A stretch of 63,318 nt of DNA, filler included, from an uncultured virus (IMG/VR IMGVR_UViG_2061766007_002030) (lineage: Duplodnaviria > Heunggongvirae > Uroviricota > Caudoviricetes). It is 5 parts of one record of this genome, joined end to end, with 100 filler letters (N's around TTAATTAATTAA, not from the genome) between each part and the next. Parts side by side here need not be neighbours in the genome. Positions count along the whole stretch, not along the records: positions 672 to 11,532 come from IMGVR_UViG_2061766007_002030; 4 more parts are not named here. The stretch is one strand, 5' to 3'. Under the pieces are notes generated by a model that did no database searches, was not told where the DNA came from, and was given only the letters and a program-made list of their open reading frames with translations. This document shows positions 628 through 50,255 of this stretch, piece by piece. A program made the translations under genes and the position numbers. Within the stretch, counting starts at the first letter, position 1; every line of letters starts with the position of its first letter.

Positions 628-720
628 NNNNNNNNNNNNNNNNNNNNNNNNNNNNNNNNNNNNNNNNNNNNAGGGCCTCAGAAGGAGGATGAGTAGATGG
701 GTAGTGAAGTTTAAATTTTC

Positions 721-793
721 GCCGGATTAGCTCAATCGGTAGAGCAACTGATTTGTAATCAGTAGGTTATTGGTTCAAGTCCGATATTCGGCT
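721..793 (+). tRNA. tRNA-Thr(UGU)
   Basis: Acceptor GCCGGAT/ATTCGGC; anticodon arm ACTGA-TTTGTAA-TCAGT; GGTTCAAGTCC T arm; no encoded CCA. Confidence 0.95.
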
Positions 794-799
794 TATCGT

Positions 800-1152
800 G
801 GTTAGCGCCATGACCGCAAATATGGCGTGAATCATAGCTGGCCTGGGGACGGGTGTGACTGATCCGTCGGACAAGTAGACAATGTCTCTTAATAGTGCAT
901 TGCCGAAAAATCAGTTCCGCCATGGGGGACTGCCGAACTTAGTCGAGTGAGGCATAGTCCATGGGGAAAACGGTTGGCGAGTGACCGGACGAGTCATTGC
1001 GGTGGTGAGTCTGGAAGGTGCTACGAGAGGCGAGTCCCTTATGATGTAGGTACTGCTAGGGGATGAGCTGGATTACAACCAGGTACAGCCATGTGGTGAG
1101 GTGGGCTGAGGCACTGATTCATGTGGTAAGAAACTTATATTCGACCTCAGCA
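800..1152 (+). ncRNA. Candidate large structured ncRNA between tRNAs
   Basis: No ORF; multiple hairpins, long-range pairing and two possible pseudoknots (see findings). Confidence 0.6.
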
Positions 1153-1157
1153 TTTAT

Positions 1158-1229
1158 GCCACTATAGAATAACGGTTAGTTCACCGGATTCTCAATCCGT
1201 TCATTCCAGTTCGATTCTGGATAGTGGTA
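1158..1229 (+). tRNA. tRNA-Glu(CUC), variant A
   Basis: Acceptor GCCACTA/TAGTGGT; anticodon arm CGGA-TTCTCAA-TCCG; T arm CCAG-TTCGATT-CTGG. Confidence 0.85.
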
Positions 1230-1288
1230 CTACACAGATCAAAAGGTTGAAGAATGAAAGAGAAGAAGGAATTTGTTNNNNNNNNNNC

Positions 1289-1361
1289 GGCTCCTTCGTC
1301 TAGTGGCCTAGGACATAGCCCTCTCAAGGCTAGAACAGCGATTCGAATTCGCTAGGAGCTA
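1289..1361 (+). tRNA. tRNA-Glu(CUC), variant B
   Basis: Acceptor GGCTCCT/AGGAGCT; anticodon arm TAGCC-CTCTCAA-GGCTA; TTCGAAT T loop. Confidence 0.92.
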
Positions 1362-1724: not shown

Positions 1725-1756
1725 GCAGCCACCGAGAAATCGGTGGCTGTTTTTGT
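1725..1756 (+). terminator. Intrinsic terminator after the tRNA cluster
   Basis: GCAGCCACCGA-GAAA-TCGGTGGCTGT followed by a T run; related hairpin at 1832-1860. Confidence 0.7.
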
Positions 1757-10645: not shown

Positions 10646-11532
10646 ATGAATACAATCGCATCTTCNNNNNNNNNNTTCTTCCTTAACGAATACGAACTCA
10701 AGGACACCGACGTCAAAGACGAAGTCAAGGTTCGTGAACCCATCAACCACGTCTTCTGCTGCGATATTTCTGGCAGTATGTGGCGCAGCCTTCCCAAGAT
10801 GAGGGAACAGCTGAAGAACCGTCTGTCTTCCATCGTCGAAGAAAACGACACGATTTCTATTATCGTCTTCGCCGACCCCGAAGACTGCGTTATCGTGAAG
10901 GAACATGTTCACTGTAACAATGCTCGTGAACTCTCCGAACTTCACAAGGCAATTGACCGCTACTTGGTCGACCAGGGCTGTACCGACTTCTATACTCCGG
11001 TCAAGATGACCCATGACCTTATCCGCAAGGGAGAACGCTACAACTTCGTGTTCCTGTCCGACGGTTACCACAACTGCTGCGCCTATACCAAGGTACTTGA
11101 CGCTCTCCATGAACTTGCTCCGGAAATCGCCCAGTGTACCGTGATTGAATACGGTTACAACGCCGACAGTGACCGTCTGTCCGAAATGGCAGAAATCCTC
11201 GGCGGCTCCAAGATTCCGTCCGCCGACTTCGACGAATACGTGCCGATCATGGAAAACGTGTTCAAGGGTGGCGCAGTCTCGCCCAAGGTCAAGGTGTTCA
11301 TTACCGCTGAACCCAAGAACCTTATCAAGCCTGTTGTTATCTACATGAACGAGGGCACCAGCCAGGTGACTTCCGTGGTTGTCGAAGATGACGGCTACGC
11401 CATGTTGCCGACTTCCGTCAAGAAGTTCTGGACTGTTACTCGTTCCAACTCCGCTGCCGTTGTCAACAAGAAGCCGCTCGAATTGGACGGTTTCTACGCT
11501 GTGGCATACATCCTCGCCGACAAGCTCGAATA
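10646..11532 (+). CDS. vWA domain protein, N-terminal part
   Basis: MIDAS motif CDISGSM, GCTDF, FLSDG; TTTACA-17-TATAAT promoter upstream. Confidence 0.85.
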
Positions 11533-11633
11533 NNNNNNNNNNNNNNNNNNNNNNNNNNNNNNNNNNNNNNNNNNNNTTAATTAATTAANNNNNNNNNNNN
11601 NNNNNNNNNNNNNNNNNNNNNNNNNNNNNNNNT

Positions 11634-11821
11634 CTGACATGGACGGCGACAAGAAGAGCTTCGCTCGTCAGCTTGCCCAGATGAAGTTCGCAATGCTCGT
11701 CAGCCGCAAGTGGTTCGAAGGTTCTACCGACTTCGATGACAACACGGATACGATCCATTCCCAGTACGGTCTGGACATGACGATCGAATACCGCTTCGTC
11801 GACAAGAAGCAGAATCTCTAG
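11634..11821 (+). CDS. C-terminal fragment, probably of the vWA protein (misplaced)
   Basis: Open frame ending at TAG 11821 before a hairpin and the next promoter; link to the vWA gene is inferred. Confidence 0.5.
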
Positions 11822-11982
11822 TATTGGCTCATATAAACAATACGGGGCTGGGCGATGTCCCAGCCCCGTTATTTTTACTATATTGGATAACATATGGATA
11901 ATGAAATGACTATGAAAGGTGNNNNNNNNNNAGGGGCTGGGAGATGTCCCAGTCCCTTTCTTTTTACTATATTGGATAACAT

Positions 11983-12665
11983 ATGGATAATGAAATGACT
12001 ATGAAAGGTGGGCAGAACATGCCGTATCGTTCGTCCGTAATCTTGAACACGAAAGGCAACTTTTCTGAGGTTCACAGCATGACTGATTGGATTAAGGACA
12101 AGTCCACACGTGTTCTCAATATTACTCACGACGACTTGGACGGAGCAGTAGCTGGTATCGTCATTCGTAACGTGTATCCGGCTTGCATTACTGTAAGGAC
12201 AAATTACAGTGGTCCCGTTTACCGTGACGCTATCGAGGCAATCTCTAAGCCAGACACATACGACGCAATTATCTTCAGCGACTTCTGTCCGGATGATGCG
12301 ATGCTTGATGCCGTGCATGCCGTTCGCAAGCCTTACTTGGTGATCGACCATCACCAGACCGCCGTGGTGCGTGCTGATGATCCTTATGGCGAATATTTCG
12401 TCCAGGAAGGCCGCTGTGGCGCTTTATTGTGCTACGACTACTTCAAGGATATGGCTGACTTGAAAAAGCTCTACCAGCTGTGCGTGGTGACGAACGACCA
12501 TGACCTATGGCTGAGGAAGATGATTCCTATTTCGGACGACTTGAATACGCTGCTGTACGAATACGGCTATGACGCATTCATGACTAAATTCATGAACGGT
12601 CTGGAGCCAAACGGTAATCTTCCGGAAGATTCGAGGGCTATTCTCGCCAACCACGAGCATGAAGT
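11983..12665 (+). CDS. DHH family phosphoesterase, N-terminal part
   Basis: THDDLDG, SDF, IDHH, DHDLW motifs. Confidence 0.88.
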
Positions 12666-12675
12666 NNNNNNNNNN

Positions 12676-14217
12676 GACTCGTTCCAACTCCGCTGCAGTT
12701 GTCAACAAGAAGCCGATCGACTTGGACGGTTTCTACGCTGTGGCATACATCCTCGCCGACAAGCTCGAATACGACCTTGTGGAAGACTTGCTCTACTATA
12801 TTGGCGACAAGAAGTTCATCAGCCAGTACCAGTCTTCGTTCGGTAAGCAAAAGCTGTTCGTGTTCCAGACAGATCTTTCTGCTGCGGTGTTCGACAAGTC
12901 GCTGCGTGGCGAAATCGATCCGAACTACAAGGCATCCGATGACCGTTATTGCGTGATCGATTTCTTCAATGAACTCGCCACCAATACCGACAACCTTGTC
13001 CGTGTGGCTTCTGACGACTTCAGCTATAACCGTACCGGCGCTAAGTCGGTCGATAAGGTTGTGCTGACTGATGAAGAACAGAAGGCTCTTGCCGAAGCCA
13101 AGTCCGCTGCCGCTGCCCAGGCTATCCTTGACAAGGCAAAGGAACGTCAGGTCAAGATGACCAAGATCGACAAGGGTTATCCGCTGGATTCCTTCGTGTG
13201 GAACGAAGACCGTGCAAACCTCGGTGGCCTTTTCAACATCGANNNNNNNNNNTGTGTTCGACAAGTCGTTGCGTGGCGAAATCGATCCGAACTACAAGGC
13301 ATCCGATGACCGTTATTGCNNNNNNNNNNNNNNNNNNNNNNNNNNNNNNNNNNNNNNNNNNNNNNNNNNNNNNNNNNNNNNNNNNNNNNNNNNNNNNNNN
13401 NNNNNNNNNNNNNNNNNNNNNNNNNNNNNNNNNNNNNNNNNNNNNNNNNNNNNNNNNNNNNAGTCAAGATGACCAAGATCGACAAGGGTTATCCGCTGGA
13501 TTCTTTCGTGTGGAACGAAGACCGTGCAAACCTCGGTGGCCTCTTCAATATCGAAGTGGAACTCGAACTGCCGGAAAACAAGTTCGGTCTTACCAAGGTC
13601 AACTCTACCATCTTCCGTAACTACACCATCATCAAGGATGGTATCGTAAACATTCCGGTGCTTCCGTTGATTCTCACCAAGGCCACGCTCAACACCATCA
13701 AGAAGCATGAAGGCGTTGTCATTACTGTCCAGAAGGAACTTGACAACGGAATGACCCAGTGCATGGTGGATATCTCTGCCCTTCCGGTGATCAACAAGAA
13801 GAAGATCAAGGGTGCTAAGAAGTCCGAAATGACCAAGCTCGCCTTGAACCTCACCGACAGCAAGTTCTGTCTGAAGTACCTCAAGTCCCTCGTTACCAAG
13901 GAAGCTCCGGCTCCTCTCAGCGAAGGTTACACTCCGGAACAGGCCGACTACCTTGCTTCTCTCGGCATCACGTCCAAGGGCTACAATCCGCCCAAGGAAA
14001 CCGTCAAGGAAGGCGACTTCTATATGGCTCCGACCATCAACTCCGCATTCAAGGGCTTCTCTTCCGAACCGAAGATTGCCGACGTTCTTGACAAGGTCAA
14101 GAGTGGCAAGAAGCTTACTCCGTCCGTGGAATACATGGCCGCTGTCATCAAGCGCATCGACGAATATCTCGCCAAGAACTCTACCGACGCTAACCGTGAA
14201 GAAGTCATCAACCAGAT
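12676..14217 (+). CDS. vWA protein, middle part (gapped)
   Basis: Overlaps the end of 10646..11532 (TRSNSAAVVNKKP...ILADKLE). Confidence 0.75.
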
Positions 14218-32500: not shown

Positions 32501-33676
32501 ATGAAATACTTGAAAAATTATGACTTTATATTTGTCGGCGCTGGTCTAACCAACGCTACCATCGCAGAAACCATCACAACCAATAGCCGCTGGGATGATA
32601 AGTTCAAGATGCTAGTCATCGACCGTCGTAACCATATAGGCGGTAACTGCTACACCGAAAAGAAGAACGGAATTGACGTACATAAGTACGGTGCCCATAT
32701 TTTCCATACGTCCAATGGCTTTGCGGCGTCCTATATCCAGCAGTTCGGAGAATGGAGTCCGTTCATCAACCAGCCGATCGCCGTGTTTACACAGCCAGAC
32801 GGAACGAAACGTATGTACAACATGCCGTTCAACATGAATACATTCGTGCAGTTGTTCCCTGGACTTACGACACCGGATGAAATCAAGGCTGCTATCCAGA
32901 AGGAAATCGACGAAGCTGGTATCAAGGAACCGAAGAACCTTGCCGAACAAGCCATCTCAATGGTCGGCACGACAATCTTCAATACACTCGTCAAGGGCTA
33001 CACAGAGAAGCAGTGGGGTCGAAAGTGCGAAGACCTTCCGGCCAGCATCATCAAGCGTCTCCCAGTGCGTTTCACGTTCGACAATAATTATTTCAATGAT
33101 ACGTACCAGCTGATGCCAGACGACGGTTATACAAGCGTCATTGAGAATATGTTCAATGAAGTAAACAAATATGACGACATCCGCTTGGATATTATGCTGG
33201 ACACGCCATATCAGAAGCTTGCTGAACTTGGTATCAAGGGTAAAAGGGTCTTTTATTCCGGCGGAATCGATGAGTTTTATGGATACAAGTTCGGTGCGCT
33301 CAAGTACCGTTCGGTCAAGTTCAAGGAAAAGGAATTCAAGTCGGACAATGTACAAGGCTGCCCTGTATGCAACTACACGTCGACCGATGTACCATATACT
33401 CGCTCTATTGAGCACAAGTGGTTCTGTCCGCATGAAGGTACTAAGGGCTCTATCGTGAGCTACGAGTATTCCTCTGAATGGAAGAAGGGCATGGAACCGT
33501 ACTATCCGGTCAACGACGAGGCTAATCAGGAGCTGTATGCTAAATACGTACGGCATCATGAATCTCAGCCGACTAATGTTCAGTTTGTCGGTCGACTTGG
33601 TACATACAGCTACATGGACATGGATGATTGTATCCTGGCCGCAAGGCAGATCGGACTGCGTTACGTTGACAAATAA
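32501..33676 (+). CDS. glf: UDP-galactopyranose mutase
   Basis: VGAG, HIGGNCY, HKYGAHIFHT, YTEKQWG, EPYYPVN, GRLGTYSYMDMD. Confidence 0.95.
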   Translation: MKYLKNYDFIFVGAGLTNATIAETITTNSRWDDKFKMLVIDRRNHIGGNCYTEKKNGIDVHKYGAHIFHTSNGFAASYIQQFGEWSPFINQPIAVFTQPDGTKRMYNMPFNMNTFVQLFPGLTTPDEIKAAIQKEIDEAGIKEPKNLAEQAISMVGTTIFNTLVKGYTEKQWGRKCEDLPASIIKRLPVRFTFDNNYFNDTYQLMPDDGYTSVIENMFNEVNKYDDIRLDIMLDTPYQKLAELGIKGKRVFYSGGIDEFYGYKFGALKYRSVKFKEKEFKSDNVQGCPVCNYTSTDVPYTRSIEHKWFCPHEGTKGSIVSYEYSSEWKKGMEPYYPVNDEANQELYAKYVRHHESQPTNVQFVGRLGTYSYMDMDDCILAARQIGLRYVDK

Positions 33677-40150: not shown

Positions 40151-41447
40151 ATGAAAATTAACTTGAATGAAATTGACAATGACCAACTGAAGTCTGGTCT
40201 TGCGTTGGCCAAGAAGATTACCGAGCTTGGCCCCTACAAGGCAGAGGCTTACCTCGTTGGCGGCTGTGTCCGTGACTTGGTTCGTTACCAGCTCGGTCAG
40301 ACAGACACTATCGATATCCATGATATCGATATTGCCACTTCTTTACCTATAGAAGAACTGAAGAAGTATTTCAAGACATGCGACAACAACGGCGAGAAGC
40401 ACGGCACTATTCTCGTATGGTGGAGCGACCAGTATTTCGAGGTGACCCATTTCCGTACTGACGGCGAATACAGCGACGGTCGTCATCCTGACGAGGTTAT
40501 TCTTACTGAATCATTCGAGGAAGACACTGCTCGTCGTGACTTTACCATCAATGCCCTCGGTCTCGCATGGGACGGCGAGGTCATCGACTATCACGGAGGC
40601 GTCGACGACATCAAGAATAAAATTATCCGTGCTGTCGGCGATCCTAGCAAGCGTTTCGAGGAAGATGCACTCCGCATGATCCGTGGCGCTCGTTTCGCTG
40701 TCAACTTCAATTACAGCATCGAGAACGATACGTCTCATGCAATGTATAAGAACGCTGACCGTCTTGCCNNNNNNNNNNTGATACGTCTCATGCAATGTAT
40801 AAGAACGCTGACCGTCTGGTCAACGTGTCAAACGAGCGTATCCGTGCTGAATTCTTGAAGATTACTGATCTGGCGAACATTCCAGACTTCATCGACCGTT
40901 TAATCTGGGATGGACTGATTAAGCATATCAGAGCTTTCGTTGGTCTAGACTGGTATGAAGTGAAGAGCAACCTTATCGAGTGCGATGATTTGCTGACTGC
41001 GGATAACCTATTCCCGGCAATCTGTTTCACGGCAAATGACGAAAGCAACTTGGAAGCGTTCGTTCCTACTCGTGATGAACGAAAACTCTGGAACTGGCTA
41101 CGTTCTTACAAGAACGTCTACGCATGGGATCCGGATTCCAAACTGTATTGGACTTCTCTAGTGGAATTCGTTTCTGGAGAGTACGATCTGCTGCTTGCTC
41201 TCAATGCCGATTATTATTGTGAGCGTGCGTGGCTGCCCAAGCTTCCAACAGCACGCTATCTGCTTCAGAATCCGCCTGACATGAAGGCGATTTCTCAAAG
41301 GGTCTCTGACATGGGTATCCCTCAAGGCAAGGAATTTGGCGACAAGGTGAAGGAACTCCTTGAAGCCGAATATGCTAAGATGGCGGCCATATTCCCCAAC
41401 ACGGTCTCGCTGACGATGGGGAACAGCACTCTTGTATACAAAATTGA
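40151..41447 (+). CDS. cca: CCA-adding tRNA nucleotidyltransferase (class II)
   Basis: YLVGGCVRD, DIDIAT, FRTD, RRDFTINA, RFEEDALRMIRGARF, ERIRAEF. Confidence 0.9.
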
Positions 41448-48064: not shown

Positions 48065-48631
48065 ATGTGTGACGACGATTTTGACGATGTTGACATCGCC
48101 CGGGACGAAGAGGCGGAAAGAATAATCCGAATTACGGGAGAAATCGACGAGGATTCCTCGGAGAAGTTCATCCTATTGTTACACAGAGTCGCAAAAGTCC
48201 CGGGCGATATCACCGTTATTATTTCTAGTGACGGCGGGGATATAGAGGAGGGACTCCGCATCATAGATGCTATTACCATAGCTAAGACGAAGAACTGTCG
48301 CATACACACCGTCGTTTCCGGAAAGGCTTATTCTATGGCCGCACTGATTACTTGCATCGGGGACATTCGTACGATGTACTCGCATTCCAGGATGATGTTC
48401 CACCCGGGCCGCTACGAAGAGGGTAACGAAAGCAAGACTCTTACACCGAAAGAACTTAAGGAAATGTACGAAGAGCTCGAGATGTTCAACAGGATGTTCA
48501 AGCGCATACTCAAGAATGTCGGCGTATCCGATACGGAATGCGATAAGATGATGTCCGGCGATGTATACTTGAATGCCGAGGAAGCAATCTCCCTCGGCAT
48601 AATAAATTCAATCGAAACTGAGATTATATGA
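48065..48631 (+). CDS. clpP: ClpP-family protease proteolytic subunit
   Basis: ITGEID, ISSDGG, AYSMAA (catalytic Ser), MMFH, YLNAEEA..LGII. Confidence 0.85.
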   Translation: MCDDDFDDVDIARDEEAERIIRITGEIDEDSSEKFILLLHRVAKVPGDITVIISSDGGDIEEGLRIIDAITIAKTKNCRIHTVVSGKAYSMAALITCIGDIRTMYSHSRMMFHPGRYEEGNESKTLTPKELKEMYEELEMFNRMFKRILKNVGVSDTECDKMMSGDVYLNAEEAISLGIINSIETEII

Positions 48632-49965: not shown

Positions 49966-50255
49966 ATCAACTACCCACGGGCTAAAGACCCGTGAGTTTG
50001 AAACAGTAAACAATGTGAACTGCTGAGAACTCATAGTTGATTAGACTAAGTGATAGGAGAAATCCTTGAACTACGTTAGGATGGTCACGATACCCTGGAA
50101 TGTTTGTCCAAGTTCCCCGCTCTATCGTGTATCATTAAACAGACCTGATGGGTAGGGTCAGTGTGGTACGCACGACAAGCCATCCTAACATTGTCGATGG
50201 ACACCCACGGGGAGAAATCCCTGCATTACCCATTAAGTTGGGTTCAACAAAAGGA
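49966..50255 (+). ncRNA. HEARO / IscB omegaRNA scaffold
   Basis: TCAACTACCC..., AGTTGATTAGACTAAG, CTACGTT, CCAAGTTCC..GCTCT, TTAAACAG, CAGTG, AACATTGTCGA in the canonical order. Confidence 0.85.

Follow-up and report, generated by a model that had tools for sequence, protein, structure and literature searches.

A 364-nt putative structured RNA, apparently of a family absent from Rfam, between two tRNA genes of a T4-like jumbo phage

What fills the space between tRNA-Thr(UGU) and tRNA-Glu(CUC) in this uncultured tailed phage? The locus lies near the start of the window, by which we mean the whole 63,318-nucleotide stretch of DNA that was analysed. The first-pass annotation, made from the sequence itself, had proposed an ornate, ORF-less candidate non-coding RNA at 800–1152 between the two tRNAs. 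The placement and the lack of coding capacity are both borne out, the plus strand of the gap holding no ORF of at least 40 aa; there is indeed an element at this position, slightly wider than first drawn, and it occupies the entire 364-nt gap. The features of the locus are the following:

721–793, plus strand: tRNA-Thr(UGU), without an encoded CCA, adjoining the 5′ end of the RNA
794–1157, plus strand: 364-nt RNA gene (358–364 nt in full-length homologues)
1158–1230, plus strand: tRNA-Glu(CUC), without an encoded CCA, adjoining the 3′ end of the RNA
1228–1359, plus strand: second tRNA-Glu allele, flanked by a duplicated 50-nt stretch
1726–1755, plus strand: terminator-like hairpin and T run, after tRNA-Ser

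The first bases of homology are TATCG in every copy, and at four of the five full-length loci the RNA follows immediately on the tRNA-Thr discriminator base. Since an 810-nt insertion with a DUF559 gene between tRNA-Thr and the RNA at locus L210 leaves the same start base, the 5′ boundary is fixed independently. The 3′ boundary lies 5–6 nt past the last helix, directly at tRNA-Glu. Close relatives differ strongly in the alleles that occupy the tRNA-Glu(CUC) and tRNA-Thr(UGU) slots, with the RNA kept between them. No promoter or terminator belonging to the 364-nt RNA was found in our scan. The transcript likely ends at the hairpin and T run after tRNA-Ser, a 10-bp inverted repeat (1726–1735/1740–1749) followed by TTTTTG that is kept in the related locus L006 and that the terminator scan did not list.

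The window itself is pieced together: it contains 91 N runs, and parts of some alleles appear in duplicate. Positions 572–671 read N44-TTAATTAATTAA-N44, which has the look of a contig-joining linker, and the same pattern recurs at 11533, 39966 and 51207. An exact 50-nt repeat, 132 nt apart and with an N gap, surrounds the second tRNA-Glu allele; because a contig of DNA run X2 joins 1227 to 1360, this allele is probably an assembly bubble, and relatives have a single tRNA-Glu at that site. The short junction at 672–746 is confirmed by X2.

Taken as a single sequence, the gap gives none of the motif evidence above chance. Every motif of the first-pass annotation can be found where it was placed, including the two occurrences of GGCGAGT (976 and 1029). 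However, complementary 7-nt pairs number 4 versus 2.7 in shuffles, with 86 of 300 shuffles reaching 4, and some 7-mer is repeated in 294 of 300 shuffles. The fold z-score of the window is −1.6 on the plus strand, where 7 of 100 shuffles are as good, and +0.2 on the minus strand; with other shuffles it is −2.5, and the copies give weak values of −0.6 to −2.8. It is thus the homologues that decide.

The neighbouring proteins led to G001, a viral contig of 348 kb (91% complete) that is syntenic with the window; 33,210 bases of the window align with it at ~77%. Its T4-like genes include those for portal, major head, tail sheath and DNA polymerase. Of its tRNAs, 42 form a single 17-kb island, at whose tail the RNA lies, and one is found elsewhere. 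Besides the window, copies of the RNA were found at L006 (on G001), L140, L236, L207, L204 (partial), L210 and L251, the last with its 3′ end on L254. L140 and L236 are identical across the RNA, and the alignment (A5) comprises six distinct rows, L236, L204 and L254 being excluded as duplicate or partial; the rows represent two main alleles, L207 and L210 being mosaics. A metagenome pattern scan returned at least 119 loci, five of them real copies, and more copies may exist. Among the at least 121 loci listed for a triple-GGCGAGT pattern, all were chance or tandem repeats except the G001 copy; other pattern scans gave 4 loci, all by chance, and another 3, of which one was real. Against 50,697 records of phages and 72,556 of plasmids, blastn with the RNA gave no match at E≤1. 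The RNA is single-copy both in G001 and in the window, and the same element stands in independent assemblies and on an independent DNA contig spanning 785–1227.

Conservation of the RNA exceeds that of silent sites. Between the window and G001, 301 of 360 positions (84%) are identical in the RNA, compared with 388 of 833 fourfold sites (47%) in 11 genes (12 were tried, one without a match). Recent exchange of the whole region fails to explain this conservation, because the fourfold sites of the two nearest genes are identical at only 7/16 and 61/111. The tRNA-Thr of the window shares 52 of 73 positions with that of G001 (L006), which is below the conservation of the RNA, and the regulatory (promoter/terminator) spacer after tRNA-Ser is as conserved as the RNA (74/90 and 95/110, 82–86%). 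No ORF is shared among the copies, indels breaking every frame. We consider it very probable that the 364-nt element is a selected structured RNA.

The structure model was built from stems kept in all rows (307 of at least 4 bp) together with a consensus fold, yielding 95 pairs in 13 helices. All lie on the plus strand:

796–802/1020–1026, plus strand: P1, long-range helix closing the 5′ domain; 7/7 pairs in 6/6 rows
805–812/821–828, plus strand: P2, hairpin with a G-C/G-U/A-U series
814–819/997–1002, plus strand: KL1, loop-loop pseudoknot CCGCAA/UUGCGG; 6/6 pairs in all rows
837–844/1081–1089, plus strand: P3, tentative long-range helix, crossing P1
848–854/862–868, plus strand: P4, hairpin; 100% paired, one double and two single changes
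857–861/940–944, plus strand: KL2, loop-loop pseudoknot GACUR/UAGUC; 5/5 pairs in all rows
878–885/897–904, plus strand: P5, hairpin with a variable tip; one double and two single changes
915–925/959–968, 931–934/951–954 and 937–939/946–948, plus strand: P6-P7-P8 arm (915–968)
985–990/1009–1014 and 993–996/1003–1006, plus strand: P9, hairpin (985–1014) with tandem G-A at 991–992/1007–1008
1029–1031/1067–1069 and 1034–1040/1058–1064, plus strand: P10, hairpin (1029–1069) with tandem G-A, containing the second GGCGAGU
1105–1111/1145–1151, plus strand: P11, 3′ domain; one double change
1121–1125/1134–1138, plus strand: P12, inside P11; 88% paired, one double change

In this model 98.0% of 558 cells are paired, as against 36–39% in slid controls, although the model was fitted to the same six rows and reflects ~10 independent events. 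With regard to the covariation test among homologues that the first-pass annotation had called for, double-sided changes occur at 10 pairs, one in each of 10 of the 13 helices of the six related rows (0–2 pairs in slid controls), the exceptions being P3, KL2 and P9. Shuffles gave 5.4 double-changed pairs and equalled the observed 10 in 1 of 500, a test inflated by the kinship of the rows. Where private substitutions of L207, L140 and L251 hit Watson-Crick columns, pairing survives in 8 of 9 cases, compared with 19–38% after a random single change; those of L210 fall in loops or the G-A motif. In a non-circular, modest test, 16 of 34 pairs of the window-only MFE fold that are changed in L006 are kept, five of them by double change. 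About 40% of the RNA lies outside the assigned pairs.

Seven elements (P1, KL1, KL2, P5, P6, P9 and P10) are additions to what had been proposed from the single sequence. P1 shows a U-A/C-G double and a U-G/U-A single change. KL1 is invariant in five rows and reads CUGCAA/UUGCAG in L251, a double change; KL2 has one G-U/A-U change. The P6-P7-P8 arm is 100% paired, with double changes in P6 and P8, and so is P10, with one double and three single changes. P5 carries one A-C mismatch in the window and in L210. The hairpins proposed earlier at 848/868 (5/5 pairs in 6/6 rows) and 1105/1151 (7/7 pairs in all five rows that reach it) stand as P4 and P11, and that at 805/828 mostly holds as P2 (6–7 of 7 pairs), with one G-A mismatch in L251 and an extra double change at 811/822 in that row. 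In the proposed stem GGACT-GCC/GGC-AGTCC the GCC/GGC part is kept, but GGACT/AGTCC retains only 3/5 pairs in three rows. The 971–987 hairpin is invariant, but it competes with the better supported P9, which we favour because L207 turns the tandem G-A into Watson-Crick pairs (both of them, and L210 one); P9 otherwise has two single changes and one pair broken in three rows. As to the long-range pairing 837–844/1081–1089, it is preserved at 7–8 of 8 pairs but lacks compensatory change: seven of the eight P3 pairs are invariant, one is broken in two of six rows, and RNAalifold favours another partner for the P3 strand.

The two pseudoknots of the first-pass annotation did not survive the alignment. 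GACTGAT/ATCAGTT keeps 5/7 pairs in three rows and 6/7 in one, and (T)GAATCA/TGATTC(A) keeps 4–5 of 6 pairs in three rows; both are wrong, and by comparison of the rows the predicted KL1 and KL2 take their place. Whether these kissing loops would form within or between molecules is not distinguishable by sequence. The self-complementary loop hexamer GGUACU (1049–1054) is invariant, but with 13 such hexamers in all it is no more than a lead. A reading of the GGCGAGU repeats as T-loop-like loops was rejected, the second copy lying in a covarying helix and a third similar motif being variable.

No RNA family in Rfam matches the element. As had been suggested as a check, the gap was compared with Rfam, and no family matched over it at E≤10. 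The absence of tmRNA ends and of an RNase P signature noted in the first pass agrees with ARAGORN, the models and the motif searches alike. For tmRNA (RF00023), ARAGORN found none, the model matches in G001 lie elsewhere and below cut-off (the related phage G010 reaches 111.7 bits), no tag frame is common to all copies and there are no tRNA-like ends. The type A RNase P RNA model (RF00010) gave no match at E≤10 in G001, with controls over cut-off in 8 of 14 genomes, and the CR-I/CR-V motifs are absent at ≤1 mismatch in 6/6 rows. Type A RNase P RNA and tmRNA resemble the 364-nt RNA in length and in being pseudoknotted, but differ by model match at the locus, tRNA-like ends, tag frame and conserved-region motifs, none of which it has. 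The group I intron model (RF00028) likewise gave no match at E≤10 in G001, and R/S motifs are absent at ≤1 mismatch in 6/6 rows; both flanking tRNAs are complete without splicing, which argues against a group I interruption. Rfam small-ribozyme families do not match over the gap, and a loose HDV-like/theta descriptor gave an uninformative 15–34 matches per row. HDV-like folds, which are nested double pseudoknots, have a short P3/L3 hairpin, and the 364-nt RNA has ~175 nt at that place.

GOLLD and ROOL deserve closer comparison. Both are phage RNAs near tRNA islands that form cages via kissing loops and whose function is unknown (10.1101/2024.12.08.627333, PMC12990946); ROOL averages 581 nt (PMC5737381), and GOLLD sometimes embeds a tRNA (PMC6582537) and possesses, besides a variable 5′ domain, a conserved 3′ domain of 375 nt that in S. 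agalactiae contains two kissing loops of the intramolecular kind (PMC12990946, PMC6582537). The 364-nt RNA has a GOLLD-like location, at the tail of the 42-tRNA island of a T4-like jumbo phage, and it shares with GOLLD the ORF-less character, multiple helices with kissing loops and the approximate size of the 3′ domain (PMC12990946). Unlike GOLLD, which is 700–830 nt in full, it is confined to one phage clade so far and has no model match: the GOLLD model (RF02032) gave none at E≤10 in window positions 660–1300 or in G001. The gathering threshold of the model of the conserved GOLLD 3′ domain is 150 bits; as a control, the model registered in 5 of 14 genomes, always below cut-off. With ROOL it shares rumen or gut origin, vicinity to phage tRNAs, several junctions with pseudoknots and non-essentiality (PMC5737381, 10.1101/2024.12.08.627333). 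The ROOL model (RF03087) gave no match at E≤10 at the locus or in G001, nor did any control genome match; the ROOL architecture of ~580 nt, six multistem junctions along with three pseudoknots differs from what we see, namely 358–364 nt, sharp ends, a pair of loop-loop pairings and, tentatively, one long-range pseudoknot. GOLLD and ROOL form homo-oligomeric RNA-only cages. The literature searched held no description of it; supplementary files 1, 2 and 4 of PMC10690425, which lay outside the search, could contain a fragment, and the part of that paper that was covered (Fremin 2023) lists candidates of 29–151 nt only. The first-pass annotation had offered a short relative of GOLLD and ROOL or a new class; an uncatalogued family fits, but kinship with GOLLD or ROOL is unsupported by sequence or covariance models. 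On these comparisons the 364-nt RNA appears to represent a family absent from Rfam and to be a member of neither GOLLD nor ROOL.

Is the RNA transcribed? Among the 24 runs listed, 20 (14 studies) contain the stretch, six of these being RNA runs from five studies; in RNA runs X21, X22 and X24 its words are almost entirely missing. Contigs of three of the six RNA runs (X15, X17 and X19, from three studies) and of one DNA run, X2, were placed on the window. The X15 contig covers 766–1134 with two differences and reaches 28 nt into tRNA-Thr; those of X17 cover 829–878, 888–1150 and 888–1015, and that of X19 covers 807–1083. X15 contigs also lie over parts of protein genes. X17 and X19 give no cover at the protein genes 1338–1633 and 1708–2884, where X2 is continuous, a lack of contigs that is no proof of silence. 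RNA-library contigs give no strand, ends or level, and the runs were chosen for containing the stretch; the cover is a weak hint that the 364-nt RNA is transcribed.

The distribution of the RNA is narrow. In G004, a near-complete relative whose capsid protein is 88% identical, the syntenic tRNA-Thr runs directly into a 60-aa ORF and the RNA is absent. A capsid-protein alignment gave 80 related loci. Covariance model R1 is narrow: it has 236 positions, spans only 794–1030 and might overlook remote homologues. It gave no genuine match in the 25 records of related phages that were searched (best E 0.49), among them four at least 90% complete with 22–39 tRNAs, nor in 150 other genomes of the phylum of G002, nor with filters off in three tRNA islands (best 8.8 bits). 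A profile HMM run over the relatives' tRNA islands came back empty, the 3′ third of the RNA being searched by profile HMM only. Because G004 lacks it and the searched relatives gave no match, the RNA is accessory, and confined to one clade as far as the narrow model tells. The habitat-labelled runs with the stretch are gut or bovine gut metagenomes. Relatives of the capsid (83%) and of a mutase (53%) carry the label of a Fibrobacter MAG, and a Prevotella MAG includes a 4-kb contig with one copy of the RNA; either label may reflect mis-binned phage DNA, so the host is uncertain.

Several other elements of these phages lie in or near tRNA islands. An ORF-less, GC-rich element of ~520 nt sits just upstream of tRNA-Thr in L006 (2944–3466), L140, L251 and, in part, L210, and is absent from the window (693–720), L207 and L204; with a fold z of −2.1, no Rfam match at E≤1 and copies too alike for covariation, it is a candidate second large ncRNA. 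G004 has a different ORF-less element of 216 nt before tRNA-Thr(UGU) and then the 60-aa ORF (L358:12432–12647, minus strand), without an Rfam match at gathering level. Inside the G001 tRNA island, at L265:10903–11159 and 11391–12809, two Y-RNA-like RNAs (YrlA, below cut-off) stand beside a gene for a phrog_850 RNA-binding protein, which we take to be Ro60-like. HEARO RNAs occur in the window (49966–50208, 132 bits) and in G010, where L362:9606–11872 also holds a true tmRNA in the tRNA island and further long, ORF-poor, GC-rich inter-tRNA stretches without Rfam matches; G011, G013 and G014 too have many tRNA-adjacent gaps of 200–600 nt. AT-rich endonuclease-like genes (DUF559; a weak phage endonuclease I match) are inserted right after tRNA-Thr and tRNA-Glu, each with a similar short leader, at L210:572–1261 and 1814–2854 and on L254. 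The window further encodes the head of a tRNA nucleotidyltransferase/poly(A) polymerase (40151–40768), a UDP-galactopyranose mutase (32501–33676) and a ClpP-like protein (48065–48631).

Our leading reading, to which we give slightly less than an even chance, is that the 364-nt RNA founds a new family: structured, accessory and acting on its own, it would work in the manner of GOLLD and ROOL. It would be co-transcribed with the island tRNAs during infection. RNase P cleavage of the tRNA-Glu leader together with removal of the tRNA-Thr trailer would free an intervening RNA; the former would make the 3′ end and 3′-trailer removal the 5′ end, and the placement between CCA-less tRNAs supports the notion that tRNA processing could release the RNA. 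The kissing loops would then give a compact, nuclease-resistant particle, or may pair between molecules into oligomers as in ROOL and GOLLD. Its most likely job, at a guess, would be to sustain phage translation when host defences target RNA, serving as scaffold, decoy or sponge alongside phage tRNAs, Y-RNA-like RNAs, a Ro-like protein and a CCA-adding enzyme.

Could the RNA instead be a new class of ribozyme that processes its neighbour tRNAs, by self-cleavage at the tRNA-Thr 3′ end or by RNase P-like action in trans? The size and the crossing P1/P3 are reminiscent of RNase P and group I topology, the RNA has long invariant unpaired stretches, and its start right after the tRNA-Thr discriminator at four of five loci would suit such a role. 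Theta (minimal HDV-like) ribozymes, whose start in gut phages coincides with tRNA 3′ ends, are proposed to trim tRNA 3′ trailers there (PMC10879173); these are minimal ribozymes, however, and the 364-nt RNA has no Rfam match. Moreover, RNase P and group I models that matched controls found nothing in G001, their motifs and Rfam small ribozymes are missing, P3 is without covariation, G004 has the same tRNA without the RNA, and in L210 the RNA is intact despite 810 nt separating it from the tRNA, all of which leaves catalysis quite unlikely.

We regard as very unlikely that the RNA is the 3′ domain of a strongly diverged GOLLD, with the upstream ~520-nt element as its 5′ domain and the tRNA in the linker. 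The domain layout of known GOLLD, as described above, invites this comparison, and L006, L140, L251 and L210 carry the upstream element (the window, L207 and L204 lack it); however, the GOLLD model finds nothing at E≤10 in G001 or at 660–1300, pairing between the two elements is not above chance (longest helix 11 pairs, shuffles 11–15), and in L210 a protein gene separates them. A cis-acting structured spacer that paces or protects tRNA precursor processing and is then degraded strikes us as similarly improbable. Such a spacer would always lie within the tRNA transcript, and the RNA does so, with no promoter or terminator of its own found and one RNA-library contig running 28 nt into tRNA-Thr; yet most island tRNAs are a few bases apart without spacers of this kind, two pseudoknots and 84% conservation exceed what a spacer needs, and RNA-library contigs cover the RNA. 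Highly unlikely, too, is a selfish or mobile RNA module inserting at tRNA ends, whether it serves as guide to an RNA-guided nuclease or is left over from an intron: presence is patchy, endonuclease-like genes flank the RNA in L210 and HEARO RNAs occur in these phages, but the RNA is single-copy at one site, no nuclease gene is linked to it in the window, L006, L140 or L207, neither HEARO nor intron matches at the locus, and the endonuclease genes, as AT-rich insertions, bring flanks of their own. A neutral spacer or assembly artefact, as the N runs and duplicated pieces of the window and its chance-level single-sequence statistics might suggest, is scarcely credible given independent assemblies and the 785–1227 DNA contig carrying the same element, conservation far above silent sites, and compensatory changes.

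A bolder extension, which we hold to be unlikely as a whole, would make the 364-nt RNA the founding example of a class of large phage RNAs, new to science, that catalyse or self-assemble: a tRNA maturase or a translation-shielding RNA-only particle, with the tRNA-Thr site as an exchange point. RNase P-sized and doubly kissing-looped but devoid of any known motif, it would itself mature CCA-less tRNAs or shield against tRNA-cutting defences, and the RNAs exchanged at the site, unrelated to each other, would be the 364-nt RNA, the ~520-nt upstream element and the 216-nt G004 element.

The stand-alone structured RNA that we favour would matter beyond this locus. Limits are set by how narrowly it is distributed, by a phage that is uncultured and by the uncertainty over the host, and natural plus/minus relatives exist. 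At 364 nt, with its ends fixed, its kissing loops specified and compensatory alleles supplied by nature, it can be transcribed, probed and imaged at little cost. Among bacteria and phages, large RNAs with an intricate fold are rare, and what the best known of them, GOLLD and ROOL, do is still open. A third, shorter and unrelated family in the same setting suggests that phages repeatedly recruit such RNAs to tRNA islands.
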